Assembly (NCBI GenBank): GCA_963810935.1
Contig: CAWEPK010000003.1
Coordinates: 1-64,000 of the forward strand
Source: an uncultured delta proteobacterium
GTDB lineage: Bacteria; Desulfobacterota; Syntrophorhabdia; Syntrophorhabdales; WCHB1-27
DNA: 64,000 nucleotides
Direction of reading: 5' to 3'
Every line of letters starts with the position of its first letter. Positions within the stretch are counted from its first letter, which is position 1. Position numbers and translations under genes: made by a program. Below are positions 14,373-55,465 of the stretch, piece by piece. A model generated the notes under the pieces. It was given only the letters and a program-made list of their open reading frames with translations, made no database searches and was not told the DNA's origin.

Positions 14373-14377
14373 TATAT

Positions 14378-24949: not shown

Positions 24950-24969
24950 CTATCCCTCTTAACTTATCA

Positions 24970-26584: not shown

Positions 26585-26587
26585 CGC

Positions 26588-27958: not shown

Positions 27959-27968
27959 CGCCCCTCCT

Positions 27969-29557: not shown

Positions 29558-29615
29558 CGTTCACTCCTTATTATAGCCCCGGCGCTATTCGACGTGCGCC
29601 GGGCGTCTCGCTCTT

Positions 29616-30005
29616 TTAAGGCTTGGGAAGACCGAGGAGCTCGCGGGCGAGGACGTCTATCGACACGGGTTGGGCCCCCGGCGTCACCGCCTCCAGGCAC
29701 TCTGCGGGAACGCCTATCTCCTTGAGGAGGCCGCGCGCGTATTCGAGCCGCTTTTTGGCGCGCGCGTTGCCCTCGCGGTACCTGCACGCCCCTTCCGGGC
29801 ACGTGACCAGGTAGACTTTTTCGGCGCCCGCCTCTATGGCCCTGAGCAGATGGAGCGATTCTATTCTTCCGCTGCATGGCAGCGGGAAGAAACGGATCGT
29901 CCCACCGGACTCCTTTTCAAGGGCGCGCCTGTTCGTGTTTTCGTTCGGGTCTATCTGACGACAGAAAAAGATATTGGTGTTGGTACGGATATTTTCGGTT
30001 TTCAT
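29616..30005 (-). CDS. mvhD: MvhD-like 2Fe-2S subunit
   Basis: PCSGRI..LHLLRA...GA..V....CPEGACRY..GN..A. Confidence 0.8.
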   Translation of the reverse strand: MKTENIRTNTNIFFCRQIDPNENTNRRALEKESGGTIRFFPLPCSGRIESLHLLRAIEAGAEKVYLVTCPEGACRYREGNARAKKRLEYARGLLKEIGVPAECLEAVTPGAQPVSIDVLARELLGLPKP

Positions 30006-30024
30006 GCCTTCCGCCCGTCGTAAT

Positions 30025-30073
30025 AAAAAGGACGTCCGGAGTGGACGTCCCGTCTTTTTGACACCCCTCTGTG
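30025..30073 (-). promoter_or_regulatory. ANTAR-type attenuator of the mvhD-metVF-gltB operon
   Basis: CAC-AGAGGG-GTG, then GAC-GGGAC-GTC overlapping terminator GGACGTCC-actcc-GGACGTCC-TTTTT. Confidence 0.6.
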
Positions 30074-30080
30074 GTCGGCT

Positions 30081-30109
30081 AGTTTAACAAAACAAACAAC
30101 GCATGTCAA
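30081..30109 (-). promoter_or_regulatory. Sigma-70 promoter
   Basis: TTGACA-17nt-TAAACT. Confidence 0.65.
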
Positions 30110-30192
30110 TGCCTATGGGCGTTATTCGTTGCGTGCCCGGCGTAAGTCGGCGAAAGAGCGGTATATCTCACGCCGGGCACGCAAGTACCCGA

Positions 30193-32289
30193 TTAAAGCT
30201 TGAACAGGAGATCCGCGTAATTCGGCACCGGCCACATATCCTTAGGCACCAGCCCCTCCATCCGGTCTACGTCACCGCGCAAATCCTTCATTGCGGGAAC
30301 GACCTTGTCGCGGAGCCATTCTGCCTTCTTCACGACGTCGCCTATCCCCTCCGCCTTCGCGGTTGCCGCTTCCAGTTGGGCCACGCTCTTAAAAGAAGAC
30401 GCAAGGATGTCCGCCAGTTGTTTCAAAAGCTCGGTCTGGGCGGAAGCCGCCACGCCGGCGGACTTGAAACCGGCTGCGGAATCGGCCAGGAAGGTCGCGT
30501 ATTTCATCCCGGCGGGCAGGAACTGTTTCCTGGACATATCGATCGCCGTAAGCGCCTCTATATTGATCTGTTTAGCATAAGTGTCCACGTAGATGTCGTA
30601 GCGCGAGTGCAGCTCCTTGTGCGAGAGGACGCCGTATTTCTCGAAGAGCGCCAGCGCCTTCTTGGTGGTGAAGGCTTTTAGTGCGTCAACGGAGTTCCCT
30701 ACGTTCGGCAGGCCGCGCTTTTCCGCCTCCACGACCCATCCTTCCGAATAGTTGTTTCCGTTGAAGATCACCCGGCTATGCTTCTTATAGATGTCCTTGA
30801 CTATCGCCGCAGCTTCCAGGTTCTTGTTTTTGGCCTTTTCGAGGCGGGTCGCTATCTCGTCGAGGGCTTCGGCCGTGATTGTGTTAAGGGCTACGTTTGG
30901 CCCCGAGATCGACTGGGCCGAGCCGACGGTCCGAAATTCGAACTTATTGCCCGTGAAGGCGAATGGCGAGGTCCTGTTACGATCCGTATTGTCCTTGGGG
31001 ATCATGGGCAGCGTGTCAACGCCCACCTTGACGAATTGCGCGCCTCTTGCCGAGAACTTTTCGCCTTTCGATATCTTCTCGAGGATTTCCGTAAGGTCGT
31101 CGCCCATAAAGACCGAGACGATGGCCGGCGGGGCCTCGTTGGCGCCGAGCCGATGATCGTTTCCGGCGCTCGCGCAGGTAGCCCTGAGTATATCGGCATG
31201 CGTATCTACGGCCTTCAGGAGGGCGCTCAGGAAGAGGAGGAATGTTACGTTTTCGCCCGGCGTGTGTCCGGGTTCGAGCAGGTTGATGTTGTCATCGGTC
31301 GAGAGAGACCAGTTGTTGTGCTTGCCCGACCCATTAATACCGGCATACGGTTTTTCGTGAAGCAGGCACACGAGCCCATGGCGGAAGGCCACCTTCTGCA
31401 TCGTCTCCATGACGAGCTGGTTGTGGTCGGCAGCGATATTGGTGGTGGTAAAGACAGGGGCCATCTCGTACTGCGCCGGTGCAACCTCGTTATGCTTGGT
31501 CTTGGAAAGGATGCCCATCTTCCACAGCTCGGTGTCGAGGTCTTGCATGTAGGCGGAAACTCTGTCTTTAATCGCTCCGAAGTACTGATCCTCAAGCTCT
31601 TGCCCCTTTGGAGCGGGGGCGCCGAACATGGTGCGGCCGGTCAGCATGAGGTCGGTGCGCTCCATATAAAACTTCTTGTCCACGAGAAAATATTCCTGCT
31701 CGGGACCGACAGTCGATGTCACTTTCGACGATGTGGTGTTGCCCAGTGCCTTCAGCACCCGCAACGCCTGCTTCGAGACTGCGGCCATCGAGCGGAGCAG
31801 GGGCGTCTTCTTATCGAGTGCTTCGCCGTTATAGGAATAGAAGGCCGTCGGGATGGTCAACGTTACGTTGCCGCTTTCGTCTTCCTTGAGGAACGCCGGA
31901 GACGTGCAATCCCAGGCCGTATATCCCCTCGCCTCGAAGGTGGCGCGCAAACCGCCGCTCGGGAACGAAGAGGCATCCGGCTCGCCCTGTATAAGCTGTT
32001 TTCCGGAAAATTCCATGACGATGCCGCCGTCCGCGGTCGGGGATATGAATGAATCGTGTTTCTCCGCCGTTATGCCGGTCAGGGGATGGAACCAGTGCGT
32101 GTAGTGTGTGGCCCCTTTCTCAATGGCCCAGTCCTTCATGGCGTTCGCAACTATGTCCGCGACATGCGGCTGCAAGGGCAGATCTTTTTCGATCGTTTGC
32201 CTCAGGGCCTTGTAAATTTCCTTGGGGAGTCTTTCCTTCATGACCTTATCGTTGAAAACGTTGGAGCCGAAAACTTCCGTAAGCTTCAT
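30193..32289 (-). CDS. glnA: Glutamine synthetase type III
   Basis: [49 protein letters not shown] and [25 protein letters not shown] before ATG 32289. Confidence 0.93.
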
Positions 32290-32398
32290 GGTCTTATTTT
32301 TCCTCCTTGCTTTTTTGTAAATCCTCTCGGACATGGGAGAACAGGCCCAATGACCTTACAGGTCCATTTTTATGCGAGATGTGTAACGTCTCGCCGTT

Positions 32399-32428
32399 TA
32401 CAAGTAAAATCTACACTAATATGGTAAC
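32399..32428 (-). promoter_or_regulatory. Candidate alternative-sigma promoter GTTACCA-N16-ACTTGTA (glnA)
   Basis: Exact 7+7 nt boxes with a 16-nt spacer; also at 34472 and 44169. Confidence 0.72.
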
Positions 32429-32471
32429 TCCCGCCACTGGATTCTCTCGGCGGCTGCCGGAATCCGGCGGC

Positions 32472-32813
32472 CTACCCTATGGCGCTGCCGTCGCGCTCGC
32501 CGGTCCGTATCCGGATGCACTCCTCCAGGGGCAGCACGAATATCTTGCCGTCCCCGATTTCTCCGGTACGGCCTCCCTTGATGATCGCCTCGGTCGTCCG
32601 CTCCACGAAATCATCGTTGACTGCTATAAGAAGCTGGACCTTTCTGAGCAGGTTTCCCATCTCCTTGACGCCCCTGTAGACTTCGGTCACGCCCATCTGG
32701 CGTCCGTGGCCCAGCACCTCGCTTACCGTTATCAGGTTTACTTCCGCCTTGTACAGTTCTTCCTTTACCGCCTCCAGCCTGTCCGGTTTAATAATGGCGA
32801 TAATTACTTTCAT
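32472..32813 (-). CDS. glnK: PII nitrogen regulatory protein (amt-linked)
   Basis: IAIIKP, GHGRQ.G..EVYRG and TGEIGDGKIFV..E..RIRTGE. Confidence 0.9.
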   Translation of the reverse strand: MKVIIAIIKPDRLEAVKEELYKAEVNLITVSEVLGHGRQMGVTEVYRGVKEMGNLLRKVQLLIAVNDDFVERTTEAIIKGGRTGEIGDGKIFVLPLEECIRIRTGERDGSAIG

Positions 32814-32836
32814 GCTCTCCTCCCTCCTCTTAACTT

Positions 32837-32890
32837 TCGGCGCTCGCATACGCTCGCTTTAATACCCTGCTGCTTGCAGCAGGGTATTTA
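32837..32890. repeat. Partial REP-like repeat with hairpin
   Basis: TCGGCGCTCGCATACGCTCGCTT plus AATACCCTGCTGC-TT-GCAGCAGGGTATT. Confidence 0.6.
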
Positions 32891-32893
32891 TCG

Positions 32894-34120
32894 TTATTCG
32901 AGTATCGTATATGCGTTCTCGTTGTGCTGCGTGAGGTCGAGGCCCATGATCTCTTCCTTTTCGGGGACCCTCATACCTATCACCCAATCGACCACCTTGT
33001 AAAGAATAATACTTGCGACGAAGCTGTACGCGAGGGTCACCCCGACGGCCGCTGCCTGGATCAGGAGCTGCTTGGGGTTGCCCAGGAAAAGGCCGTTCGC
33101 ACCATCCGGGTTGACGAGCTTCGAGGCGAAAAGCCCGGTGGCCAGCGCGCCGAAGACGCCGCCGACGCAATGGACGCCGAAGGTGTCGAGCGAGTCGTCA
33201 TATCCGAGCAGCGGCTTCACGATTGCGACGGCCAGGAAGCAGAAGAGGCTGACGAATATGCCTATAATGATGGCCGGGATGACGCTTACATAGCCGGACG
33301 CCGGCGTGATCGCCACGAGTCCTGCGACTGCACCCGTTGCCGTACCGAAGGCCGTCGGCTTGCCGTTGTGGATCCATTCTATAAACGCCCATGAAAGGCC
33401 GGCCGTCGCAGCGGCTGTATTAGTCACCACAAACGCGTTTACCGCCAGGCCGTTCGCAGCCAGGGCGCTGCCCGCGTTAAACCCGAACCAGCCGAACCAG
33501 AGCAGCGCGGTGCCAAGGATAACGTGCGGCAGGTTGTGGGGCGGAATGGGCTTCTTATCGTAGCCTTTCCTTTTGCCTATCAGGAGGCAGGTGGCCAGCG
33601 CCGCGATGCCGGAATTGATATGGACGACGGTGCCCCCCGCGAAATCGAGCGCCCCCAGGTCCTTAAGCCATCCGCCTATGCCCCATACCCAGTGTGCGAC
33701 GGGGTCGTAGACAAAGGTGGCCCAAAGGACAATGAATACGCAGAACCCGGAGAACTTCATGCGCTCCGCGAATGCTCCCACGATCAGGGCAGGCGTTATG
33801 ATGGCGAACATGGCCTGGAAGATCATGAACGCCTGGTGGGGGATCGTCGGCGCGTAATCCTTAAACACTTCCAGGCCGACGCCGTTCAGGCCCGCCCACT
33901 GGAGGCCGCCCCAGAACCCCTTGCCGGGCCCGAACGCAAGGCTATACCCGTAGAGTACCCACTGGAGGCTGATAATCGCGAGGATCGTAAAGCACTGCAT
34001 CAGCACGCTGAGGACGTTCTTGCGCCGAACCATACCCCCATAAAAGAAAGCCAGGCCGGGGGTCATGAGCATTACCAGTGCCGAGCACGCCAGCACCCAT
34101 CCAGTATCACCCGTGTTCAT
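32894..34120 (-). CDS. amtB: Ammonium transporter (amt1)
   Basis: MTPGLAFFYGG, GAFAER, DFAGGTVVH, WFGWFGFNAGS and DDSLD.FGVH. Confidence 0.95.
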   Translation of the reverse strand: MNTGDTGWVLACSALVMLMTPGLAFFYGGMVRRKNVLSVLMQCFTILAIISLQWVLYGYSLAFGPGKGFWGGLQWAGLNGVGLEVFKDYAPTIPHQAFMIFQAMFAIITPALIVGAFAERMKFSGFCVFIVLWATFVYDPVAHWVWGIGGWLKDLGALDFAGGTVVHINSGIAALATCLLIGKRKGYDKKPIPPHNLPHVILGTALLWFGWFGFNAGSALAANGLAVNAFVVTNTAAATAGLSWAFIEWIHNGKPTAFGTATGAVAGLVAITPASGYVSVIPAIIIGIFVSLFCFLAVAIVKPLLGYDDSLDTFGVHCVGGVFGALATGLFASKLVNPDGANGLFLGNPKQLLIQAAAVGVTLAYSFVASIILYKVVDWVIGMRVPEKEEIMGLDLTQHNENAYTILE

Positions 34121-34148
34121 GAAAGTCTCCTCCTTGGACTCAAACAAT

Positions 34149-34310
34149 TATTGGGGCTCAGCACCCCCTCCACCGGCAAAGCCGGCGGAGCCACCCTGCT
34201 CGGCGCTTCGCATTCGCTCGCTTTTTACTGCCGGCGCTCGGTACTCGCTCCGGCAGTAATCGGGTTTGACACCACCTCCACGAGCAAAGCTCGCGGAGCC
34301 TCCCCCTCAT
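34149..34310. repeat. Two tandem REP/MITE-like units in the amt1 leader
   Basis: CCCCTCCAC-hairpin-GGAGCC(T/A)CCC core at 34149-34225 and 34262-34310. Confidence 0.65.
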
Positions 34311-34324
34311 AAAAAGGAAAGGGC

Positions 34325-34445
34325 AAAATAAAAAGGCGCCTCCTGTCCTTCAAGTACGTGGACAAGGGACGCCTTCGTCCGGTCGCCAGGGCAAAAAAAT
34401 GGCGCTCTTTTCTAAGAACGCCGCCGTTTTAACACTTCAACGTGT
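34325..34445 (-). promoter_or_regulatory. Double ANTAR-type attenuator of amt1-glnK
   Basis: ACAC-GTTGAA-GTGT; AAC-GGCGGC-GTT overlapping terminator 1; GGAC-GAAGGC-GTCC overlapping terminator 2. Confidence 0.72.
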
Positions 34446-34471
34446 CTGCCCGATCTGCGGGCTTATATGAC

Positions 34472-34501
34472 TACAAGTAAAAGTTTAAGTCTTTTGGTAA
34501 C
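34472..34501 (-). promoter_or_regulatory. Candidate alternative-sigma promoter GTTACCA-N16-ACTTGTA (amt1)
   Basis: Exact match to the other two copies. Confidence 0.72.
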
Positions 34502-34507
34502 CGGCAA

Positions 34508-34600
34508 TTATTGGGACACCCGCAAGCGGGTACCCGGTCGCCCCCTCCACGTGCGAAGCCCGTGGAGCCTCCCCCTCACAGACTCGCTTTCGCTCGTGGT
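34508..34600. repeat. REP/MITE-like unit
   Basis: TTATTGGG...CCCCCTCCAC..GTGGAGCCTCCCCCTC. Confidence 0.6.
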
Positions 34601-34601
34601 C

Positions 34602-35834
34602 CTAGGTACCCGGCGGTTTGCAGCAGGGTAATCTCGAAAGGCCCGGAAAGAGGCGCGCCCATGTGCACCTTGCCTTGATAAGCCCGCCTGTTTCCTGCGA
34701 GACGTCGATCTTTTTGCCTATCAGGCTCACGTAGAGGCCCTCGTTCTGCACGTCGCCCACAAAGGCGAAGCCTTTGAGCACGCCGTCTTCCATCAGGACC
34801 TTCCTGCAAGACCGCTCGTCCTCTTCCCGCAAGACGCCCGGCCCTTCGTCCCTGCTCCTGCCGGCAGTAAATATGGAGACGCCGAATACGCGCAGGACGT
34901 TCCTGGCAAGGCTTCCCGCATATGCGGCCTGCGCCCCCGACATATTGAAGGCCGCTATCCTGCCCTGCTCCACAGCGGCGGGCCACAGGGCATTTACCCT
35001 CGGCTCCCCGTAAACGACGTCCATCGTCTCGACTGCGTCGCCCGCCGCAAAAATGCCGGGCAGGCTTGTCTCCTGGCGATCATCGACGCATATGCCTTTC
35101 TTTACGTCTACGCCGCTGCTTGCGAGAAAGGCGGTGCAGGGGCGGACCCCTTTGCCGAAAATTACCAGGTCGCAGGCCCTCCCGCCGCCCGATTTAAGAG
35201 AAACTTCTCCGTCCTCCCCGATCTCCGTGATGTCGTCGCCGGTGAGGACCTCCACCCCCAGCGCTTCTGCTTTCCGGCGGACGAATTCCGCTGCCGGCTT
35301 GTCGAGCATCGAGGAGAGAATGCGGTCCGAGGAGACGACATAGGTGATTTCCATGCCCAACTTGCGCAGCGCGTCGCCCGTTTCCATGCTCACCGGGCCC
35401 GCGCCCGCTATAACGGCCCGGCCTGCGCTCCCCTTGACCAGCCCCTTCATCCGGGCCACATCGGGCAGGTCGCGGACGGTGAAGACAAACGGCAGGGAAG
35501 CGCCCTTCGTTTGCGGTTTTTCCGGGACGCCGCCGGTCGCGATAAGCAGCCTGTCATAGCTGAAGTCCCGGCCCGGACGGACAAGCACCCGGCGCCTGTA
35601 GTGGTCTATCTCCGTAACCTCCGCACCGGTAATGACCGATACGCCTTCCGGGACAGGCAGAAAAATGTGCTTTTCTTCCACCTCATTCGAAAGGCGGTAG
35701 GGCAGGGCCATCTTCGCGTAGGGGGCGACCCCCTCCTTCGACAGAACCGTAACGGCGCTTGCGGGATCGAGGCGTCGCAGCCATGCAGCGGCCGTCATCC
35801 CTGCGGGACCTGCGCCTATGATAAGGTAGTTCAT
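34602..35834 (-). CDS. FAD/NAD(P)-dependent oxidoreductase (AorC-like)
   Basis: IIGAGPAG, LLIATG and TS.PGIFAAGD; last gene of the AOR operon. Confidence 0.85.
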   Translation of the reverse strand: MNYLIIGAGPAGMTAAAWLRRLDPASAVTVLSKEGVAPYAKMALPYRLSNEVEEKHIFLPVPEGVSVITGAEVTEIDHYRRRVLVRPGRDFSYDRLLIATGGVPEKPQTKGASLPFVFTVRDLPDVARMKGLVKGSAGRAVIAGAGPVSMETGDALRKLGMEITYVVSSDRILSSMLDKPAAEFVRRKAEALGVEVLTGDDITEIGEDGEVSLKSGGGRACDLVIFGKGVRPCTAFLASSGVDVKKGICVDDRQETSLPGIFAAGDAVETMDVVYGEPRVNALWPAAVEQGRIAAFNMSGAQAAYAGSLARNVLRVFGVSIFTAGRSRDEGPGVLREEDERSCRKVLMEDGVLKGFAFVGDVQNEGLYVSLIGKKIDVSQETGGLIKARCTWARLFPGLSRLPCCKPPGT

Positions 35835-35843
35835 TGTCCGGTC

Positions 35844-37647
35844 CTAAAGGTCGAGCTCAGCGAGCTTCTCCTTGCCCGGCACCCCTGTCGCGCTCCATCC
35901 GCGCAGGCTGTAGTACTCGGGCAGCATCTTCACAAGCTCGCTCACGTGCCCCTTCGCTCCGCCTTCGGCCAGAGGCACTTTCAACAGGCGCTCGGGCAGC
36001 GTATCGTCTTTCGCCGTAAACCCGGCCTTGATATTATAAAGGCGCTCGAGGTTCCAGATGCGCTCGCCCGCCTTCATAAATTCGTCGGTCGTGTACGGGA
36101 CGCCGGTAGCAGCGCTCAATAGCTCCGCGATCTCGTCCGCGCCGATGCCGAAGGTGGCAAAGAGGCACATGCCCGTCGAATCGAGGGCCGCTGTCAGGTT
36201 CTGGAAGATAATGACCCACTGTGCCTTTCCAACGGTCGCCGTCATATCGATTTTCACAGGGTTGCCGAGCACCTCCACCGCCGTCGTGTAGCCCCGGACG
36301 TGGCAGCCGCCCCGGTTGCCCGTTGCATAATTGAGCCCTATGCCCTGCAGGGCCCGCGGGTCGTAAGCGGGCATCTCCTGCTTCTTCACGGTCATCGAAT
36401 ACTCCGGATGCTCGTAGCTCGCTGCGAGCCGGTAGCTCCCCATCCCAAGCTTTTTGCCGAACCCGACGCCGACGCCTGTCAGGCGGACCATCTCGACCAT
36501 GGCCTCCGCGTTGCCGAAATTCAACGGTATGCCCCCCGTCTCATCGAGACCGATAATACCGTCTTCGAACATCTCCATCGCGCAGGCGACGGTCGAGCCC
36601 ATGGAGATCGTGTCGATGCCGTATTCGTTGCAGAGGTAATTCGCCTTCGTCACCGCATCGAGGTCGTCGACGCCGCACGCGGGCCCGAAGGCCCAGGCGC
36701 TCTCGTACTCCGGCCCCTCTCCGTGGCCCGCGTATTTGGGGTTGGTGACCCGCGTCGCGCGGCCGCAGCTTATGATGCAGGAAAAACACCCTCTGGGGCG
36801 CGTAAGGATCTGTTTGGAAAGCGATTCGCCGCCGACCCTGTCAGCACCGGCAAACATGGGCTGCCGGAAGTTACGGGTGGGCAGGCCGCCGCTTTCGTTG
36901 AGGATATTGACCAGCACGTCCGTTCCGAAGGCCCGCAACCCCCCGCCGCCCACGGGGTGGCTCTTTATCTTCGTCCAGGCATTCGTCATCGCCTTCCGGA
37001 AGGCGTCCGCGTCGGCTACCCGGACCGCGCCTGTGCCCCGGACTGCCACCGCCTTGAGGTTCTTGGCGCCCATGACGGCCCCGACGCCGGTCCGCCCGGC
37101 CGCCCGGCCGTACTCGTTCATGATATTCGCCATGAGGACACCACGCTCTCCGGCAGGCCCGATGCAGGCGACGCTCGCCTCCGGGTCCGTCTCGAGCCGC
37201 ACCGTGTCCGTAGTCTTGTCGGCCGTTTTCCCCCAGAGATGGGCCGCGTCGCGGACCGCAACCGCGTCGTCGTCGATCCAGATATAGACCGGTGTTCTTC
37301 GCCTGCCCTTCAACGACCAGAAGGTCGTAGCCCGCGTACTTCAGCATGGGGCCGAAGACGCCGCCCGAGCTGGAGGCCGCGATCGTGCCCGTAAGGGGGC
37401 CTTTCGTCACGACATCGAAGTGGCCCGCGGACGGGGCGTTCGTGCCCGAAAGCGGCCCAGGCGCGAAGATCAGCTTGTTCTTCGGGCCCAGCGGATCGAT
37501 GGAGGGGTCCGTCTCAGCGAACATCAGATAGGTCCCGAGCCCGCGGGCGCCGATATATTTTTTCGCCGTTGAAAGATCGAGCGGCTCTTTGACGATCGAC
37601 CCGCTCGATAAGTCGATTCGGAGGATCTGGCCGGTCCAGCCGTTCAT
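35844..37647 (-). CDS. aor: Aldehyde:ferredoxin oxidoreductase (W/Mo-pterin), split by a 1-nt frameshift near 37296
   Basis: GW.G.ILRIDLS in 36871-37647; IGPAGE, GR.G.GAVMG.KNLKA, GPEYE and G.DTIS.G in 35844-37313. Confidence 0.88.
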
Positions 37648-37649
37648 CG

Positions 37650-38126
37650 CTACACCTCCTCAAAGCTCTTTTTCAGTTCCGAGGCAATGGCCCTCTGGCG
37701 CGACCGCACGGCATCGGCCTCGTCGACGTAGACGATGGCCTGGGTGGGGCAGAAGGCTACGCATTCCGGCTCTCCCCCGCACAGGTCGCACTTGACGATG
37801 CGCCGCTTCGCGGTCTCGTAAACGACCGCGCCGAAGGGGCAGGCAAGCGCGCACATACGGCAGCCGATGCATTTTGCCTCGTCCCAGCCAACGAGGCCGA
37901 GGGCGCGGTCTTCGTGCATTGCCGTGGTAGGGCAGACCCCAACGCATGGTGCGTCCTCGCACTGCTGGCAGGTGGTGGGCACGGAAAAACCATCCGGCTC
38001 CCACGAAGCGACGTGGATGCGCGCCGTGTGGGGACGGAATTCTCTGTCATGGAAGAAAGAGCACGAAAGCTCACAGTTACGGCAGCCGGTGCACCGGTCC
38101 GGATAGATCATCAGCATTTTACTCAT
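37650..38126 (-). CDS. 4Fe-4S dicluster protein (AorA/DmsB-like)
   Basis: CTGCRNCELSC, CQQC..PC..VCP, CIGCRMC..ACP and KCDLC...PEC...CP. Confidence 0.9.
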   Translation of the reverse strand: MSKMLMIYPDRCTGCRNCELSCSFFHDREFRPHTARIHVASWEPDGFSVPTTCQQCEDAPCVGVCPTTAMHEDRALGLVGWDEAKCIGCRMCALACPFGAVVYETAKRRIVKCDLCGGEPECVAFCPTQAIVYVDEADAVRSRQRAIASELKKSFEEV

Positions 38127-38499
38127 TGCATGCCTCCCTAAGATAGAAGACTATCCGCGCATACCGGGGCCGCGCCGAAGGTACTTATTTGCGAACGGCC
38201 CCATATGCCTCTTTCCAAAGCATATACGCGCGGTTAGGCGACTTCAATATGTCTTATTTGACATAAATAGAGTGTTTTTTGCGGCTGGACTCGGACCTCC
38301 TGATTTAAGGATGCAAGGCGCACCGAACGTTCGTCGTCCTCGCTGCAAGGAGTAACAGTGTTTCTCTCGCCTCAGCTTTCCCTACACTATTACGAGTGGC
38401 AATCGATGAGGCTTGTAGTTTCCAAAGCAATCAGCTAATATTTACGGCTATTGTACACAATCCTCGACACGCTGACACAGGTTACGGAGGGTCCGGAGC

Positions 38500-41400
38500 A
38501 TGTTGGGCAGATTTCGTTCATGGTCCATAAGCACACATTTAATAACTTTGATAGCTTTCCTGGCAGTCCCCTCCATTAGCCTCATTATCTACTCGGGAAT
38601 AGCCGCGCGCAGGACGGCGATAGACGATGCCGGCGGGGAATGCCTGACACTAGCGGGCAATATTGCGGGTCAGCAGCAGTCCATGGTTGCAGGCGCGGAA
38701 CAACTAGGGGCCGCGCTCTCTGCTCTTCCCCAGGTGCAATCTCGAAACCCCGTCGCCGTCAATGCCCTTTTCTCCGAGCTTTTAAGAAAGAATCCTCAAT
38801 ATGCCAATATCGCCATCTGCGACAAATCGGGCCTGGTCTGGGCATCGGCGCTCCCCGAGGGGGAAAGGGTATCGGTGGCCGACCGGAGGTTCGTTCGGGA
38901 AGCGTTCCGCACGGGGATGTTTTCTTCCGGTGAATACATCGTAGGCCGAATATTGAAAAAACCTGCCATCAGTTTTGGATATCCCGTGAAGGACGTGGCT
39001 AATGAGGTGACAGCAGTAATAGGAATTGTCCTCAACCTGGAATACGCCCAGGGGATGTTCGATAAGCTCGACCTCCCTTCCGGAGCGTCGTACGCCCTTC
39101 TCGACCACCAGGGGGTCATTCTCACCAGAAATATAAATGATCCCCTTACAAAGGGCCTTGTCGGACAGCGTGACACTGTGAAAGAGCTGTTCACAGGCAT
39201 GAAGGCTCCGCCCGAAGAGACAACTTTTCAGGCCATGGGGAACGAGGGGAAGTTCAAGCTGGGCGCCTACAGGAGGATTCGCCTGCCGCATGAGGCGGAG
39301 CCCTATATGTATGTCCGTGCCAGCATACCTCTTTCCTCCGCCGTCGCCGCTGCAAACGCGGCCATGTTCCGCAACCTGGCAACCTTCGTGTCCTTGTTCC
39401 TCACCGGGTTGTTTCTGGCCTGGTTCATCGGGAAGCGCGTCATAGTGAACCCCTTGATGATGTTAAAGGGGGCAGCCGGGCAGTTGGCCGCCGGTGCGGA
39501 TACGGTCAATGTGGCTTCCGTTGTGACAGGCGGCGAACTCGGAGAGTGGCTCGCGCATTCGACGATATGGCTGAGACTTTGATTCAGGAAAAGACCGCCC
39601 TTCGGACAAGCGAGGAGCGTTGGTCCACCACCCTCGCCAGCATAGGGGATGCAGTCATTGCAGCCGATGTTGAAGGAAAGATCACATTCATGAACGCCGT
39701 TGCTGAAGGGCTGACCGGCTGGACTCTCAAAGAAGCCGGAGCGAAACCAGTGACGGAGATATTCAACATCATCAACGAGCAGACCCGTGATCAGGTTGAG
39801 AACCCTGTCATAAAGGTGCTCCGGGAAGGCGTGATCGTCGGTCTTGCGAACCATACGGTCCTCATTAGGAAAGACGGATCGGAGGTCCCCATAGACGACA
39901 GCGGCGCTCCCATAAGAGATGAGGTCGGTAACACCAGCGGGGTGGTACTCATTTTCCGCGATATCACCGAGCGTAAACTGGCCGAAGAGGAGCTTCGTCA
40001 AAGCGAAAAGCGGTATCGGGAACTCTTCGAGACGATGTACGAAGGTTTCATCCTCGGGGAAGTTATAACAGACGAGCAGGGCAGAGCGGTGGATCACCGA
40101 TATCTCGATATCAATCCTCGTGCGGAGCAGCAATTCTTTAAGCGTCCTAGAGAGGAGATTGTTGGCAGTACATATAGAACGGTTGGAGGGGCACGGGCGG
40201 CTGATGAGTGGGCAGAACTGCTCGGTAATGTCGCAATAACTGGCGAGCCTGTATCTGTAGAGCGTTATGCGCCCGTAGGCGATCAGTGGATACACTTGGC
40301 TGCATACTCCCCCCGGATCGGGCAGTTTGCCGCAGTCTTCGAGAATATCACCGAGCGCAAGCAGGCCGAAGAGGCGGTTCAAACAACTCTAAAGCGCCTC
40401 TACACCGTTCTTGCGAGCATGTATGGCGGTCTCTTACTTGTAACGGACGAGAGCCGAGTTGAGTTCGCCAATCAGGCGATTTGCGACTATTTCGATTTGA
40501 GCGAGTCACCCGCAGACCTTGTGGGGCTTACCTCATCCGAAATCTTTGCAAAAATCACTGAAGCCTATTTGCACCCTGATGAAGCGACTGCCCGCGTCAA
40601 GGAAATAGTGGATCGAGGACAACCCGTAGCAAACGAAGAAGTGGCCATGCACAACGGGCGCGAACTCCTACGGGATTTTATCCCCATACGTGTAAACGGA
40701 AAATCGTCTGGCCGGTTGTGGTACCACACAGACATCACCGAACGCAAGGCTATGGAGGAGGCATTACAAAAGGCCCACGACGATCTTGAACAACGAGTGA
40801 TCGAGAGAACTGAGCAGCTCGTTAATAGCGAAAAGGAGTTTCGCTTACTTGCCGAGGCCATGCCCCAAATTGTCTGGATTACCAGAGCGGACGGCTGGAA
40901 CATCTATTTCAACCAGCAGTGGGTGGACTACACGGGACTAACGCTTGAAGAAAGCTACGGTCATGGCTGGAACACACCGTTCCATCCCGATGACAGGCAA
41001 CGCGCCTGGGACGCCTGGCAGAATGCGGTAACGAACAACGGCACTTATTCTCTTGAATGCCGTTTGCGGGCAGCGGATGGGACATATCGCTGGTGGCTGG
41101 CCCGTGGCGTGCCTATTGTGAACGAGGAAGGAGAGACTACGAAGTGGTTTGGTACCTGCACCGATATTGAGGAGCTTAAGAGAGTTGAGGCTCAGCTCCG
41201 CCAGGCGCAGAAAATGGAGGCCCTTGGCACGCTCGCGGGAGGCATCGCCCACGACTTCAACAATATCCTCGCCGCCATCATCGGGTTCACTGAGCTTGTG
41301 GAGGACCACGTCCCTAAAGCGAGCCGGGAGGCACATCACCTGAAGAGGGTCCTGGAGTCTTCCTTGCGAGGCAGGAACCTGGTGCGGCAGATGCTCACCT

Positions 41401-42332
41401 TCAGCAGAAAGGGAGAGCAAGAGAAGAAACCCATGAGTTTGAGCAGCCTCGTCAAGGAGACTGTCAAGCTCATTCGGGCGACCACGCCGACGACGATCAG
41501 CATCAAGGTCAGCACCGGAAGCGAATCGGGTATAATCCTCGCAGACCCTACACAGATGCAGCAGGTCGTCATGAACCTCTGCACCAATGCTGCGCACGCC
41601 ATGCGGGAGAAGGGCGGGACCCTCGACATAAGATTGAACAATTACAACGTCTCTCCATCGGATGGATACCCCCACGGGATCAACCCCGGCCTTTATACGA
41701 GGTTGACCGTCAGTGATACCGGCACCGGCATGTCCTCCGACATCCTCGATAAGATATTCGACCCCTTCTTTACCACGAAGAAATTGGGAGAGGGCACGGG
41801 TCTCGGCCTTTCCGTTGTCCACGGTATCGTGAAGCAATCCAACGGGCATATTACCGTATACAGTGAGCCGGGCAGAGGGTCCGCATTCACCCTGTATTTC
41901 CCTCAGATCACAGACACGGGAGAGCAGGAAGCCTATGCAGCTACTGACGACGAGATTCCCACCGGCTCCGAGCGCATCCTCTTCGTCGATGACGAAGAAG
42001 CTATCGTGGAAATGGGCGAAGACATCCTCGCGGAGCTTGGCTACGACGTGACGTCCCGGGTGAGCAGCAGGGAGGCCCTTGCGCCCTTCAAGCTCGACCC
42101 ATCCCAATTCGATCTTGTCATTACCGACCAGACCATGCCCGAAATGACGGGCGTTGAACTTGCGAAAGAGATCCTCGCTCTCAGGGTGGACATGCCTATC
42201 ATCATGTGCACGGGTTTCAGCTATGTAGTCAATGAGGACAAGGCCAAGGCGGCAGGCATCAAAGCCTTTGCCATGAAGCCCCTAACGAAAAGGGAGATCG
42301 CCCAGACGATCAGAAAAGTACTCGACCAGTAA
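38500..42332 (+). CDS. Hybrid sensor kinase (Cache-HAMP-multi-PAS-HisKA-HATPase-REC), split by a 1-nt frameshift at ~39546
   Basis: HAMP GELGE|VARAFDDM spans the two ORFs; GIAHDFNNIL, FFTTK..GEGTGLGL and REC VDDE/TDQTMP. Confidence 0.88.
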
Positions 42333-42635
42333 GCCCGGTTGCACCTTCCGACTGGTAATCGGTCGTATTCTTCAAATCTCGATTCCGATCAGTTGTAGGT
42401 GAAGGCAACAATCTATGTATGCACTTCCTTAATGTAAATTTCAAAACACATTGAATACTTTTGCGCAATTTGAAGTAAAGAATGACGAGCGCCTCGTTGG
42501 AAGTAAAACGCGTCGGATTCCGTCAGTCTTTAGCCCTCGGTGCACATCCACGTCTAATCGATTTCTTGAGGCGCTCATCCGCCCGTTATTGCCGCAGAGA
42601 TGTCTTTGGAGGACGAGGAACGCGCCGGGCAAGAA

Positions 42636-42761
42636 GCGGCTGCGTATAAAGATGCAGATTTGGTGAAGCGCAAGCCCGAGGAACGGAGGCGTACTCTTTG
42701 TGTACGTCGGAGTCCCGCAGGGCGCGGCGCTACGCCAAAGATGCGCTTTATACGCAGCCGC
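42636..42761. repeat. 126-bp palindromic MITE-like element
   Basis: 16-bp perfect terminal inverted repeat GCGGCTGCGTATAAAG/CTTTATACGCAGCCGC with further internal pairing. Confidence 0.7.
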
Positions 42762-42767
42762 CCACCC

Positions 42768-43997
42768 CTACTCCATTACGGTATAGGCCGACTCGCGGTG
42801 CTGGCTCAGGTCCAGCCCCACAATCTCTTCCTTCAAGGGCACGCGGACGTCGGTGAAGAGATCGACTGCCTTATAGATGATGTAGGTGGCGACCAGGCTG
42901 TAAGCCGCGACTGCGCCAGTTGCCAGGAGCTGGACAAGGAACTGCCGGCTGTTGCCGAAGAACAGGCCGTCAGCCCCTGCCGCGTTGATCGCCTTCGAGG
43001 CAAATAGGCCCGTAACCAGCATGCCGATGATGCCGCCTATGCCGTGCACGCCGAATGCGTCGAGGGAGTCGTCGTAGCCGAGCTTCGGCTTAATCAGGCT
43101 GACGCAGATAAAGCATATTATGCTCGCGATGAGCCCTATGATTATCGCGGGGAAGGTGCCCACGAAGCCGGAGGCCGCCGTGATCGTGGCAAGGCCCGCG
43201 ATCGAGCCGGTTATCGTGCCGAACATGGTGGGCTTGCCCGTGAAGAGCCATTCGAGAACGGCCCACGTCAGCCCTGCGGTCGCAGCGCCTATGTGCGTGA
43301 CTACCAGGGCATGGACCGCAAGGCCGTTCGCGGCCAGCGCGCTGCCTGCGTTGAACCCGAACCAACCGAACCAGAGCAGCGCTCCGCCCAGCACGGTGAA
43401 GGGCAGGTTGTGCGGGGGAACGGGCCTGTTCTTATATCCGGTGCGCCGGCCGATGACCAGGGCCGTAACGAGGGCGGCGATGCCCGCATTGATGTGGACG
43501 ACGCTGCCTCCCGCGAAATCAATCACGCCCATCTCTTTCAGCCATCCCCCCACGCCCCATACCCAGTGGCAAACGGGGTCGTAAACGAAAGTCGCCCAGA
43601 GGACGGTGAAGATAAGAAAAGCGGAGAACTTCATGCGCTCGGCGAACGCGCCGATGATGAGGGCAGGCGTGATGATCGCAAACATGGCCTGGAAGATCAT
43701 GAAAGCCTCATGCGGAATAGTCGGCGCGTAGTCGGCGTAAGGGGCTGCGCCGACGCCCGCGAGACCGGCCCACGCAAGGCTGCCTATGAACTTATTGCCC
43801 GGTGCGAACGAAAGGCTGTAACCGAAGAAGACCCACTGGAGCGTAAGAATACAAAGGACTACGAAGCACTGCATGAGGACGCCGAGTATGTTCTTGCGCC
43901 GCACCATCCCGCCATAAAAAAAGGCAAGCCCTGGCGTCATGAGCATCACGAGCCCGGTAGAGATCAACACCCACGCGGTATCACCTGCGCTTATCAT
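42768..43997 (-). CDS. amtB: Ammonium transporter (amt2)
   Basis: Same Amt motifs as amt1, with both pore His residues (VVHIN, FGVHG). Confidence 0.95.
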   Translation of the reverse strand: MISAGDTAWVLISTGLVMLMTPGLAFFYGGMVRRKNILGVLMQCFVVLCILTLQWVFFGYSLSFAPGNKFIGSLAWAGLAGVGAAPYADYAPTIPHEAFMIFQAMFAIITPALIIGAFAERMKFSAFLIFTVLWATFVYDPVCHWVWGVGGWLKEMGVIDFAGGSVVHINAGIAALVTALVIGRRTGYKNRPVPPHNLPFTVLGGALLWFGWFGFNAGSALAANGLAVHALVVTHIGAATAGLTWAVLEWLFTGKPTMFGTITGSIAGLATITAASGFVGTFPAIIIGLIASIICFICVSLIKPKLGYDDSLDAFGVHGIGGIIGMLVTGLFASKAINAAGADGLFFGNSRQFLVQLLATGAVAAYSLVATYIIYKAVDLFTDVRVPLKEEIVGLDLSQHRESAYTVME

Positions 43998-44082
43998 TCC
44001 TCTCCTCCCTGGAGTTATCTATGCGGCGACCGCGCCTGCTTGCTTGCGCGGCAACGCCCTTTCGAAAGGCCTTCAGGTGCGC

Positions 44083-44138
44083 AAAAAAGGCTTTCCCTTA
44101 CCGGTAACCTCAATGTTTCCTCGACACGCCAATGTGTC
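44083..44138 (-). promoter_or_regulatory. ANTAR-type attenuator of amt2
   Basis: GACAC-ATTGGC-GTGTC, then AAC-ATTGAG-GTT overlapping imperfect stem AGGTT..AGCCT-TTTTT. Confidence 0.65.
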
Positions 44139-44168
44139 AGATTGCGCTTTGGAAGGACTTCCGCCTTT

Positions 44169-44198
44169 TACAAGTCGAAAAGGTGCGTTGATGGTAAC
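44169..44198 (-). promoter_or_regulatory. Candidate alternative-sigma promoter GTTACCA-N16-ACTTGTA (amt2)
   Basis: Exact match; about 20 nt downstream of the sigma gene stop. Confidence 0.72.
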
Positions 44199-44217
44199 TC
44201 GGGGGGGTGCGGCTCGT

Positions 44218-44859
44218 TTAGTTCCGGCAGCCTGCGGTGAGGCGCCTGCTGCCTTTGCGGCCGGCTGCGCGCCCGTTGAGCCTCTCGTATTTTGCCCTTA
44301 TCTTATTGCGGATCTTCACGACGCTGACATGGGAGATGCCCAGTTTCTGCCCTATTTCCCTCGTGGTCAGGCCTTCGAGGCAGAAAAAAAGGACGTCCCG
44401 TTCCCTCTGGCTCGTGCCGGACCCCGTCATCGCCTCAACCTCCAGTATGGTCTCCACCTGGTCGCACGACGGGCGGCCCTCCGCAATGAGCATCTCTTCG
44501 AGGTGCGGCCCGTCCTCTTCCATTATGCGGTTGAGGCTCAAAAGCGTGGTGGGGTCATGCGCTTTCCTTATGTAGTTCTTGAGGTGGAAATAGCAGCCCT
44601 GGAGTATATAACTGTCCGTCTTGTCTTCCAGGTTGCCCGCCAGGAAATCGCACCACAGGTGGATCAGGGCCTCCTGAAGAAGGTCCTGGTCGTCCATGAA
44701 GGAGAAATGGCCGTTCAGCTTGCGGGCAATCCTGCGGAGCGTGGGCGAGAGCTTATCGACGAGGGACTCAAAGGAGAAGTAGCCGGTCCTCGTGCGGACC
44801 TTCTGCGTTCCGGCCGTGTTGTCTACGCTTACAAGATGTCTGCTCGCCATTTCTTCCAT
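44218..44859 (-). CDS. Alternative sigma-70-family factor (regions 2+4; ECF/SigH-like)
   Basis: Region 2 DDQDLLQEALIHLW...NYIRK; region 4 SQRERDVL...EGLTTREIGQKLGISHVSV. Confidence 0.85.
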   Translation of the reverse strand: MEEMASRHLVSVDNTAGTQKVRTRTGYFSFESLVDKLSPTLRRIARKLNGHFSFMDDQDLLQEALIHLWCDFLAGNLEDKTDSYILQGCYFHLKNYIRKAHDPTTLLSLNRIMEEDGPHLEEMLIAEGRPSCDQVETILEVEAMTGSGTSQRERDVLFFCLEGLTTREIGQKLGISHVSVVKIRNKIRAKYERLNGRAAGRKGSRRLTAGCRN

Positions 44860-44876
44860 CCTATGCCCCTCAAACG

Positions 44877-44971
44877 AAAAAAGGCGTCCGAACCCTTTTT
44901 AAGGTTCAGGACGCCTGAGTCCTCTGATTGTCTTTTGCCTACGCAGGCAACGGGAAAGACTTCAATGTCTT
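44877..44971 (-). promoter_or_regulatory. ANTAR-type attenuator of the sigma gene
   Basis: AAGAC-ATTGAA-GTCTT; AGGAC-TCAGGC-GTCCT overlapping terminator AGGCGTCCTGAACC..GGTTCGGACGCC-TTTTTT. Confidence 0.72.
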
Positions 44972-44980
44972 CTTTTCAGT

Positions 44981-45009
44981 AGTATCCTACAAAAACGTAT
45001 CCCTGTCAA
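44981..45009 (-). promoter_or_regulatory. Sigma-70 promoter of the sigma gene
   Basis: TTGACA-17nt-GATACT immediately upstream of the first hairpin. Confidence 0.6.
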
Positions 45010-45080
45010 GCTTGATCGGACGGTAAAACGCGTTTTTTTCTTAGGGGTTGTAAGAGGAGGGCGGTTCGCCGGCTGCTTTT

Positions 45081-46304
45081 CTAACGTCTTATGTCCGCTG
45101 CCACGATGATCGCGTCAGCCACTTCCCTCATGCTCTTTCTTAAGTCCATGCTCTTTTTGTGGATCTTCTTGTACGCCTCGTCCTCTCCGATGCCCATCTC
45201 CTTCATCAGCACGCCCTTGGCCCTCTCTACGACCTTCCTCGTCTCCAGGGCCTCTTTCGCCGACAGTATCTCCTGGTCGAGGCGCGTGTTCTCGATCGCC
45301 ACGGCCGCCTGGTTGGCGATGGCCTGCATGATGTCGATCTCCTCCCTGGAGAAGTTGTGCTGCTTCTGCATGTAGCTGTTTATGACGCCGATGACCCTGT
45401 CCTTAATCATCATCGGCACCGCTATCATGGAGACGACGCCCTCTTTCTTTGCGACGTGCGGGTACATATAGCCCGGCTCTTTCGTAACGTCGGCAACAGT
45501 GATGGGCCGTTTTTCGAGCACCACCCTGCCTGCACTCGATTGGCCCACCTTCAGGTTCGGCTTGTTGATGTATTCCTGGCTGAGGCTCTGCGTTGCCGCA
45601 ATGACAAGCTCCTGCTTCTTTTCGTCGAGGAGCATGATCGAGCAGATCTTCGTGCCCATCACCTGGGCGGTCATGGTCACGATAAGCTGGAGTATCTCTT
45701 TCAGGTAGTAATCGGAGACGATGGTGCGGCTTACCTCCGACAGGAGGTCGAGCTGCTTGGCTTTCCTGTTGATCTCTTCGTAGACGACCGCGTTCTCGAT
45801 GGCGCTCCCCAGGTACTTCGAGATCGTGAAGAGCAGGTTTACCTGGTCCTCGGGATACTCGTACTCTTTTTTGTGGTGCAGGTTCATAACGCCCGTGATC
45901 TTGTCCTTCGCAAGGATGGGGACCGCCAGAAACGCCTCGTACTTGTCTTCGGCCAGCGCGGTGAAGCTCTTGAACCTCGGGTCCTTGTACGCCTGGCGCG
46001 CGAGCGCGACGGGCTTCTTTTCCTTTGCGGCCCAGCCGGTCACGCCTTCGCCCAGCTTAAGCTTGATCGCACCCACGACCTTGCTGTGGCCCGTGCCCGC
46101 GGCGCGGAGCGTCAGTTCGTCGTTCTGCTCGCTATAAAGATAGATAAGGCACGAGTCTGCGCCGGTCAGGCCGACCACCATATCGACGATATGGGCGAGA
46201 AGCTCGTTCAGCTCCAGGTTGCTGCTGATATGCTGGGCCACCTGGTGTAAGATGGCCATCTCCTGTTCTTTCGCGCTCTGTTTCCGCCCTGCTTTGGTCG
46301 CCAT
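45081..46304 (-). CDS. GAF-GAF-ANTAR RNA-binding antiterminator
   Basis: Two GAF domains (GEGVTGW..LAVPI; MIAVPM..VIGVI); C-terminal LETRKVVERAKGVLM...EDEAY..I.KKSM..RKSM.EVA. Confidence 0.92.
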   Translation of the reverse strand: MATKAGRKQSAKEQEMAILHQVAQHISSNLELNELLAHIVDMVVGLTGADSCLIYLYSEQNDELTLRAAGTGHSKVVGAIKLKLGEGVTGWAAKEKKPVALARQAYKDPRFKSFTALAEDKYEAFLAVPILAKDKITGVMNLHHKKEYEYPEDQVNLLFTISKYLGSAIENAVVYEEINRKAKQLDLLSEVSRTIVSDYYLKEILQLIVTMTAQVMGTKICSIMLLDEKKQELVIAATQSLSQEYINKPNLKVGQSSAGRVVLEKRPITVADVTKEPGYMYPHVAKKEGVVSMIAVPMMIKDRVIGVINSYMQKQHNFSREEIDIMQAIANQAAVAIENTRLDQEILSAKEALETRKVVERAKGVLMKEMGIGEDEAYKKIHKKSMDLRKSMREVADAIIVAADIRR

Positions 46305-46342
46305 TGGTGCTCCGTACGAGAATAAGCCCGGAATAAGAGTCT

Positions 46343-46371
46343 ATCTTATTGTATCGCACCCCCTTTGTCAA
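46343..46371 (-). promoter_or_regulatory. Sigma-70 promoter of the ANTAR gene
   Basis: TTGACA-17nt-TAAGAT. Confidence 0.55.
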
Positions 46372-46473
46372 CCTTGCCCTGCCTTGCGTTTCAGCCGCTC
46401 CCGGCTCGCGAATAAAATCTATTTCCCATAGAGATTGTTATGTGATAGAAAGATGTGCGAGGTAAATCCGGAA

Positions 46474-47505
46474 ATGGTTGGCAGACAGAACGAGATGGAC
46501 CGGCTGCTCCAGGCCCTGCGCGACCCCGACTGGGAGAAGCGCTTCAAGGCCGCCGAGGGGCTCGGCAAGCTGAAGAGGGCTAGGGCAGTGCGGCCGCTTA
46601 TCGAGGCGCTCAAGGACGAAGAGGAATACGTCCGGGAGGGGGCCGCCTGGGCCCTGGGCGAGATAGGCCACAAGATGGCGGTCGAGCACCTGACGGAAAC
46701 GCTCGCAGACAAGGACAGGTACGTGCGGGAGGGGGCCGTGACCGCCCTCGGTAAGATAAAAGACCCGGGTGTCGTCGCTCCGCTCGCGGGCTCGTTGAAA
46801 AACCCGGAAGAATCGATGAGGCGGGCCGCCGAAGAGGCCCTGGGAGGGCTCGGGCCCGCCGCACTCGGAGAGATTGCCGGTCTGCTGACGGATGCGGACT
46901 GGGATATCAGGTGGAGGGTCACGCACATAATGGGGCGCATCAAGGACGGCTCGGTCGTCCCCGCCCTGTGCGCAAGCCTGAAGGACGAGAACAAATACGT
47001 GCGGGAAGGGGCGGCGGCGGCGCTCGGCGAGATAGGGGACAAAAAGGCCGTGCCGGCGCTGGTCGAGGCCCTGGGCGACCAGAATAAATACGTGCGCGAA
47101 GAGGTCGTGAACGCCCTGGGCGAGCTGGGCGACAAAAGGGCGGTTGATGCCCTCATGGGCGCCCTCGACGATGCGGACTGGGGCGTCCGGTGGGGCGCAA
47201 CGAACGCCCTTGGCGAGATAAGGGACAAAAAGGCGATTGATGCACTCATCCTCCGCCTGAAAGACGAAGCGCGATACGTCCGCGAGGGCGCGGCGCTCGC
47301 CCTCTCCAGGATAGGCAGGGCGGCGGTCCCGACGCTCATCGAATCCCTCAGGGACAAAGACCGCAACATAAGGCGCTGGGCCGCCTGGACCCTGGGTAAG
47401 ATCAAGGACGAGAGGGCCGCCAGGCACCTCATAGGGGCGCTCAACGACGAGGACGGGGGAGTGCAGTTCGCCGCAGAAGTCGCCCTCGCCGAGATGGAAG
47501 AGTAA
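46474..47505 (+). CDS. HEAT (PBS lyase-like) repeat protein; start uncertain
   Basis: About 31-aa repeats of the form L.D....VREGAA.ALGEIGD..AV..L. Confidence 0.88.
   Translation: MVGRQNEMDRLLQALRDPDWEKRFKAAEGLGKLKRARAVRPLIEALKDEEEYVREGAAWALGEIGHKMAVEHLTETLADKDRYVREGAVTALGKIKDPGVVAPLAGSLKNPEESMRRAAEEALGGLGPAALGEIAGLLTDADWDIRWRVTHIMGRIKDGSVVPALCASLKDENKYVREGAAAALGEIGDKKAVPALVEALGDQNKYVREEVVNALGELGDKRAVDALMGALDDADWGVRWGATNALGEIRDKKAIDALILRLKDEARYVREGAALALSRIGRAAVPTLIESLRDKDRNIRRWAAWTLGKIKDERAARHLIGALNDEDGGVQFAAEVALAEMEE

Positions 47506-51810: not shown

Positions 51811-55465
<3,655 letters not shown>

Follow-up and report, generated by a model that had tools for sequence, protein, structure and literature searches.

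A conserved two-box motif before nitrogen genes as the probable promoter of an adjacent small sigma70-family factor

Introduction

Which protein reads GTTACCA-N16-ACTTGTA, a two-box motif standing before ammonium transporter and glutamine synthetase genes in a 64,000-nucleotide stretch of DNA (the window) from an uncultured delta proteobacterium of the order Syntrophorhabdales (GenBank assembly GCA_963810935.1, contig CAWEPK010000003.1, positions 1 to 64,000, forward strand)? Bacterial nitrogen regulons are known to be controlled either through sigma54 and its enhancer-binding proteins or by ordinary DNA-binding regulators. An earlier note, made from the window alone, had proposed that the motif is the promoter of a sigma factor encoded beside it. 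This proposal was supported by the sigma2 plus sigma4 architecture of the adjacent protein, by co-occurrence and by box-by-domain covariation, as comparative inference and not as proof. Very probably, the small sigma70-family factor that is the product of ORF 44218-44859 reads GTTACCA-N16-ACTTGTA as a -35/-10 promoter. Papers are cited below by PMC number, each for the sections of its text drawn on here.

Motif copies in the window, its genome and homolog loci

Three copies of the motif were found on the minus strand of the window, each with 14/14 box identity and a 16-nt spacer, at the positions given in the earlier note (Table 1). As that note had also described, the spacer sequences differed, with a T-run common to all, and every copy was oriented to its downstream gene (type III glnA, amt1-glnK and amt2). 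The motif was likewise non-palindromic, 2/14 box positions being equal to the reverse complement. The copy before amt2 begins 22 nt past the first base of the sigma stop codon. The further claim that the copies lie upstream of attenuators held for amt1 and amt2, which have terminator/hexaloop leaders, and failed for glnA, whose leader showed neither a U-tailed terminator nor a hexaloop with G at position 4.

A scan of the 4.06-Mb genome, as the note had suggested, returned four exact copies and one one-mismatch copy, all with N16; no copy with at most one mismatch and an N15 or N17 spacer was found in the whole genome. Dinucleotide shuffles (n=100) gave 0 matches. A chance origin was ruled out by the shuffles, the genome-wide spacer scan and control patterns, and spacers of 15 or 17 by the genome scan together with the scan of homolog loci. 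The fourth exact copy (G000:C7:726) precedes a NifA-like GAF-sigma54-activator gene (508.6 bits on the NifA model, just below the cut-off of 528.85), then two terminators. No NifH was found in this genome, the best match being partial (E 2.3e-06). The one-mismatch site stands before an APC-type permease gene (G000:C3:115286) and scored 15.8, against 26-42 for the four exact sites; among four relatives, only one showed a site with a single mismatch, lying 390 nt upstream, and another showed a site with three mismatches, and membership of this site in the regulon appears doubtful.

Six sigma70-type promoter matches were present in the region, none of them at a motif site on the strand of the gene. 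Sigma54 promoters carry conserved GG and GC dinucleotides at -24/-12 (PMC2995071), and position frequencies showed no such pair in or beside the boxes; RpoN is encoded in the genome. An Rfam search of 29000-47000 returned nothing at E<=1.

Eighty loci around homologs of the sigma gene were then compared, from Syntrophorhabdales/uncultured delta proteobacterium records, Omnitrophota, Planctomycetes-labelled metagenome-assembled genomes and one Elusimicrobia. Within their 1,125,110 bases, 122 exact copies were present in 69/80 loci, 122 on the sigma strand and 0 on the opposite strand, always with a spacer of 16; no copy with at most one mismatch had a spacer of 15 or 17. The first copy was usually at or just past the sigma stop codon. 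The final base of the sigma TAG stop doubles as the first G of the motif in many Omnitrophota loci (e.g. L036:10522, L016:10557), and in other Omnitrophota loci the upstream box lies within the last codons of the sigma gene.

The adjacent protein

The sigma gene is present in a single copy in the genome. In its 213-amino acid (aa) product, Pfam matched only a LuxR/sigma4-type helix-turn-helix (HTH; GerE 2.4e-06, Sigma70_r4_2 9e-04), and the NCBIfam model TIGR02937 (sigma70 superfamily) covered residues 30-190 with E 2e-10. The AlphaFold model (mean predicted local distance difference test score, pLDDT, 67; linker disordered) contained three helices, confident over 30-100, a linker and four helices, and its top Foldseek matches were extracytoplasmic function (ECF) and SigH factors. 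Separate sigma2 and sigma4 domain matches were obtained with VIA-align (Z 7.7-10.2), to 1sig, 8b3z, 1h3l and 5uxx for sigma2 (Z 7.7-8.3) and to 2h27 for sigma4 (Z 8.3, root-mean-square deviation (rmsd) 1.9, 61 residues). The labels of regions 2.2, 2.4 and 4.2 are those that we take to apply, placed via alignment to RpoE. Look-alikes in the Atlas fell into unnamed clusters, mostly Omnitrophota where the phylum was known, and 14% of one cluster had Sigma70_r2. Sigma fusions, suggested by long open frames, were rejected, as the translated frames at those loci were of 174-177 codons.

Residues 28-104 were co-folded with the beta' clamp helices of the genome's own polymerase and scored 0.68 against 0.01 for the best control, the docking mark being reached by 116/157 solved pairs and 2/215 mismatched pairs. 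The docking runs had at least 93% of contacts in common, with a partner pLDDT of at least 84. The predicted interface uses Q62, E63 and W69, all invariant in 119 homologs. By this model the protein is predicted to dock on core polymerase via the beta' clamp helices; this being a textbook pair, resemblance to solved holoenzymes may account for the pass.

Co-occurrence of the motif with the sigma gene

In the following counts related genomes are not independent, and absence of sigma or motif means not found in the genomes searched. A strong sigma match was present in 46 of the 61 genomes of the window's order, and 31/46 of these contained an exact motif copy; 12/15 sigma-negative genomes had no copy. 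Across the window's phylum, the sigma was found in 6/251 genomes, all from the same order. In a sample of 161 Omnitrophota genomes the sigma was present in 33, and the exact motif in 19/33 sigma-positive versus 2/128 sigma-negative genomes. A relaxed pattern, designed after variants were seen, matched 30/33 versus 5/128, and its reversed control matched 22/161.

ANTAR proteins were encoded in 109/161 Omnitrophota genomes, including 32/33 of the sigma-positive ones, and the exact motif occurred in 2 of the 77 genomes with ANTAR and no sigma match. By these presence/absence counts, the motif tracks the sigma and not the ANTAR protein. An exact match in G195 was rejected as chance: it lay inside an open frame, with no nitrogen-reference match nearby. 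In another genome (G216:C41, locus L139) an ANTAR-nadE-amt-glnK-glnA cluster was found without a sigma match, the amt copy having an eroded upstream box and the glnA copy being exact; this is possibly a regulon in decay.

Covariation of boxes and sigma domains

For 114 distinct sigma sequences (116 aligned rows minus 2 identical), the best N16 site with at most 3 mismatches was taken from -90 to +300 of the stop codon. The 82 canonical sigmas had 66 exact sites and 0 changed ones, with 16 lacking a site. In a clade with a rewritten region 2.3-2.4 and the usual region-4 helix, 13/13 kept GTTACCA, and the change was confined to the final three bases of the downstream box. In one family, two genomes whose sigma carries M178 and W181 in its region-4 helix changed only the upstream box (2/2). 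All four genome-wide GTTNNCA-N16-ACTTGTA matches in these two genomes were changed (GTTGACA 3, GTTTACA 1), and they precede amt, glnA or the first gene after sigma. Residue 181 aligns with RpoE Arg171 in an ungapped extension of the hhalign alignment, or with Phe175 in the MAFFT register, and these RpoE residues are -31/-32 determinants (PMC7776599). If the first G is -35, -31 and -32 fall on positions 5 and 4 of the motif; positions 4-5 are where the bases changed. By comparison of sequences, this points strongly to each box covarying with the sigma domain expected to read it.

Promoter register and spacer

Numbering the first G as -35 places the second box at -12 to -6 and would put +1 at 6 nt past it. 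The pyrimidine-purine step peaked 6 nt after the box, in 106/149 copies (next best 65); this count and the following one overstate independence because the copies share ancestry. A hairpin core was found in 118/149 copies and never began less than 9 nt after the box, the distance ranging from 9 to 47 nt. The T-tract occupies the last six spacer positions.

Weighing of the interpretations

Several observations weigh against assigning the motif to the adjacent protein. No Pfam Sigma70_r2 match was found in it at E<=0.001, its TIGR02937 score of 40.5 is below the cut-off of 42.9, and its hhalign match to the RpoE profile had a probability of only 13%. In the window's order, 15/46 sigma-positive genomes had no exact copy, and 3/15 sigma-negative genomes (75-92% complete) had one copy, before nifA-like or glnA genes. 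The covariation amounts to two clades and two evolutionary events on a quick tree. Among 16 sigmas with a milder (CYY-type) region-2 change, 12 had no site, 2 an exact site, 1 an upstream and 1 a downstream change, and L134 (ATTACCA twice) was classed post hoc, its residues occurring elsewhere with exact boxes. A motif within 500 nt upstream of the sigma gene was present in 1/114 loci, so the sigma is not autoregulated, and the hexaloops in the sigma leader are atypical, with longer loop spacing and a second loop beginning with U. The one RNA run that was found held 7% of words and consisted of contigs only, which cannot show starts.

An exact copy before a nitrogen gene is kept in the three sigma-negative genomes of the order and in the Omnitrophota genome G216, which speaks for another reader travelling with the gene cluster: an unlinked transcription factor with the motif as its operator, or a different sigma with the motif as its promoter. 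Such a reader is at odds with a motif that has no dyad or direct-repeat symmetry and keeps a strict strand and 16-bp spacing, whose presence tracks the sigma in two phyla, whose boxes change with the matching sigma domains, and whose upstream box is eroded in the G216 amt copy, where the locus has no sigma. We regard this explanation as very unlikely, on a comparison that did not profile the other regulators of these genomes individually. The adjacent protein might otherwise recognise the motif not as a stand-alone sigma but together with a partner protein, or by activating or repressing a neighbouring housekeeping promoter in the manner of LuxR. Its top Pfam match to GerE/LuxR, the missing Sigma70_r2 match, its divergent region 2 and a TAATGT-like stretch after many Omnitrophota copies are compatible with such a role. 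The three-helix sigma2 fold, which was both predicted and matched, the predicted beta' docking through invariant residues and the lack of gene-strand sigma70-type matches at the three motif sites make it very unlikely. Finally, the usual position of the motif just before ANTAR-type hairpins could suggest an RNA element within the ANTAR leader. This has almost no chance of being correct, given that the motif tracks sigma and not ANTAR, that the boxes are non-complementary, that the spacer length is fixed while the hairpin distance varies, and that the glnA copy has no hairpin leader. Recognition of the motif by the adjacent sigma factor is therefore preferred.

Target genes

Among 163 distinct sites, 88 were tied by BLAST to genes of the window, a few of these labels being distant matches; the assigned targets were chiefly amt (39), glnA (27), glnK (9), glutamate synthase (GOGAT; 5) and NifA-like genes (5). 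Of the remaining candidate target open reading frames (ORFs), 48/77 were scanned for families. They comprised 9 type I glutamine synthetases, 8 BBP2 porins, 2 class I amidotransferases and 21 without a family, with one each of GOGAT, NifH, amino-acid permease, ABC binding protein, NifA-like, prismane, Fis-HTH and PNPOx.

A full-length NifH-family gene (E 9e-125) immediately follows the motif and hairpins in an Omnitrophota record (L043:1042-2039). The gene that comes first after the sigma-adjacent promoter is frequently an ORF of 260-320 aa (e.g. L033:4541-5341, L036:10693-11493, L085:5819-6787) that begins much like a signal peptide and matches no Pfam family at 1e-8; in other loci BBP2 porins fill that position. 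The same promoter precedes a type I glutamine synthetase gene in relatives (L006:18366, L011:4968, L112:4223) and the type III gene in the window, which we read as a gene swap beneath a retained promoter. In three loci of one genus (L089, L090, L092) a NifA-like gene directly follows the sigma gene, and the intervening promoter is missing or altered (17-nt spacer in L092).

Leaders and the ANTAR gene

A gene for a GAF-GAF-ANTAR protein lies at most 3 kb upstream of sigma in 53/92 loci with enough flank. Dual hexaloops, counted by the definition of PMC3369931, followed 58/146 motif copies versus a shuffle mean of 1.06. Dual hexaloop hairpins, with purine 1 and G4 in their loops and in overlap with a terminator, are present in the amt1, amt2 and nifA-like leaders. 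In the amt1 leader (z -2.95 and -3.32) a second hexaloop/terminator comes after the first, and in the amt2 leader hexaloop 2 overlaps a weaker U-tailed terminator-like stem, the z of the whole leader, -0.87, being not significant. Upstream of the sigma gene, TTGACA was invariant in 9/9 family loci aligned, and the sigma leader, with its promoter match, hexaloop hairpin and terminator, was kept in 9/9. Together, the hairpins and terminators at amt1, amt2 and the sigma gene suggest a putative feed-forward loop.

Table 1. Positions of the motif copies, genes and leader elements in the window
Feature	Position	Strand	Details
Motif copy 1	44169..44198	-	before amt2; predicted start ~44163-44162; predicted -35 GTTACCA / -10 ACTTGTA
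Motif copy 2	34472..34501	-	before amt1-glnK; predicted start 34466
Motif copy 3	32399..32428	-	before type III glnA; predicted start ~32393-32392; leader without detected attenuator
Small sigma70-family protein, 213 aa	44218..44859	-	sigma2 ~30-100, linker, sigma4 ~134-196
GAF-GAF-ANTAR RNA-binding protein, 407 aa	45081..46304	-	PF03861 1.4e-20; only ANTAR match in genome
glnA, glutamine synthetase type III	30193..32289	-	
glnK, PII protein	32472..32813	-	
amt1, ammonium transporter	32894..34120	-	start = ATG after ribosome-binding site
amt2, ammonium transporter	42768..43997	-	
amt1 leader	34325..34446	-	hexaloop 1 34446-34431; hexaloop 2 34428-34417 overlapping terminator 34422-34401
amt2 leader	44083..44138	-	hexaloop hairpin 1 44138-44123; hexaloop 2 44117-44106
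Sigma gene leader	44873..44975	-	conserved hexaloop hairpin 44972-44955; second hexaloop 44922-44909 overlaps strong terminator; z -4.19
Housekeeping-type promoter match TTGACA-17-GATACT	44981..45009	-	upstream of sigma gene

Other features of the window

A glutamine-dependent NAD synthetase-like gene is often found between the ANTAR and sigma genes in loci L087-L099; in the window, nadE (49697-51763) lies about 3.4 kb upstream of the ANTAR gene. The oxidoreductase operon is separated from amt2 by two opposite-strand PAS/histidine-kinase-like ORFs (38500-42332, plus strand). In the close relatives L005 and L006 the amt2 and amt1 promoters lie about 5.4 kb apart, versus 9.7 kb in the window, so these ORFs look like an insertion. 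The glutamate-synthase-like genes after glnA (22319-30109, minus strand) lie in one operon with MTHFR genes; a separate sigma70-type promoter match stands before them at 30109-30081 in place of the GTTACCA-N16-ACTTGTA motif.

The aldehyde:ferredoxin oxidoreductase gene (35844-37647, minus strand) is in two frames, AFOR_N running from one ORF to the next, and this split is a frameshift or assembly error. Alanyl-tRNA synthetase (51811-54433, minus strand) is also split into two ORFs; as this enzyme is essential, the split suggests sequence errors in the assembly. An EcoRI-type adenine methyltransferase gene (13290-15358, minus strand) beside a GmrSD-N/HNH nuclease forms a restriction-modification-like pair.

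Discussion

In the proposed mechanism, the sigma factor would direct RNA polymerase to nitrogen-scavenging genes, with sigma4 binding GTTACCA (-35 to -29), sigma2 melting ACTTGTA (-12 to -6) and transcription beginning 6-7 nt past the latter. Transcription of the sigma gene itself would start at the housekeeping promoter and halt at the terminator as long as the leader hairpins are not bound by the GAF-GAF-ANTAR protein. Antitermination by this protein would be needed in the amt1, amt2 and nifA-like leaders as well, which makes a feed-forward AND gate in which ANTAR acts on sigma, and sigma and ANTAR then act jointly on the targets; glnA in the window's genome would need sigma only. The trigger is assumed to be nitrogen limitation, sensed via the GAF domains. 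More broadly, an undescribed sigma70-family 'nitrogen sigma' seems, on balance, to replace sigma54/Ntr at initiation in Syntrophorhabdales and part of the Omnitrophota, switched on by antitermination and not by an anti-sigma, standing above NifA-like/nif genes, in a module that moved between phyla with an almost invariant 14-bp promoter.

An exact motif makes the nitrogen regulon of mostly uncultivated lineages readable directly from their genomes, exported proteins of unknown kind and, in an Omnitrophota genome, a nifH among them. Ready-made tests of the sigma-promoter code are offered by natural sigma variants whose boxes have changed to match, and the stringent 14-bp promoter would be a candidate orthogonal switch. 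The literature searched, from which subscription journals were mostly absent and supplements outside the scope, held no account of this sigma family or motif, nor a sigma70-family factor devoted to a nitrogen regulon. In the sections drawn on, the ECF reclassification text (PMC7826278) has no mention of nitrogen, ammonium, ANTAR or Omnitrophica.

Among known systems, SigH-like factors (B. subtilis SigH model 9a4r; F. nucleatum SigH 3mzy) were among the best structural matches and are of similar size (Foldseek E 9.6e-05; VIA Z 10.2, rmsd 3.1, 77 aligned), but share about 21% identity and have a different gene context. The SigH boxes presumably differ from the window motif. The operators of GlnR/TnrA and NtcA are palindromic, whereas the window motif has no dyad symmetry and 122/122 copies lie on one strand.

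Like the ECF (group 4) factors E. coli RpoE and M. tuberculosis SigL/SigH (PMC7776599), the 213-aa protein has a sigma2-linker-sigma4 arrangement without a modelled sigma3. It also resembles them in its stringent two-box promoter with a 16-bp spacer and in the covariation of box identity with sigma2/sigma4 residues (PMC7776599). The T-tract lies beside the -10 box in the window motif but is -35-proximal in PMC5758882. Classified ECF groups have Pfam sigma2 and sigma4 matches and no sigma3; the protein differs in having no Pfam sigma2 match, which is used for extraction in that classification (PMC7826278). Further differences are that no anti-sigma candidate was identified for the window sigma, that its regulon would be nitrogen assimilation, and that its promoter lies just downstream of the sigma gene and is not autoregulatory, whereas an autoregulatory upstream promoter is common, in about half of ECFs (PMC7776599).

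The EutV, NasR and AmiR targets (PMC3369931, PMC12591593) likewise have tandem short hairpins with 6-nt loops, purine 1 and G4, overlapping a terminator before nitrogen genes. The window hexaloops differ in being coupled to a dedicated sigma promoter and in being placed also on the sigma gene. GAF-ANTAR proteins were described as uncharacterised at the date of PMC3369931. The closest described analogue is the GnfL/GnfM and GnfK/GnfR cascade of Geobacter sulfurreducens (PMC2995071), which is similarly two-layered, with initiation control followed by ANTAR antitermination of the glnK, amtB and nif leaders. That cascade depends on RpoN -24/-12 promoters together with an enhancer-binding protein, and its ANTAR regulator is phosphorylated and has its genes downstream of the master activator (PMC2995071), whereas the window system has predicted sigma70-family initiation and a one-component GAF-GAF-ANTAR protein that would act above sigma. 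Sigma-specific promoters and ANTAR attenuation are both of already known kinds; what the present analysis adds is the covariation of each box with its sigma domain, the evidence that the motif is separate from ANTAR and a model of docking on RNA polymerase.

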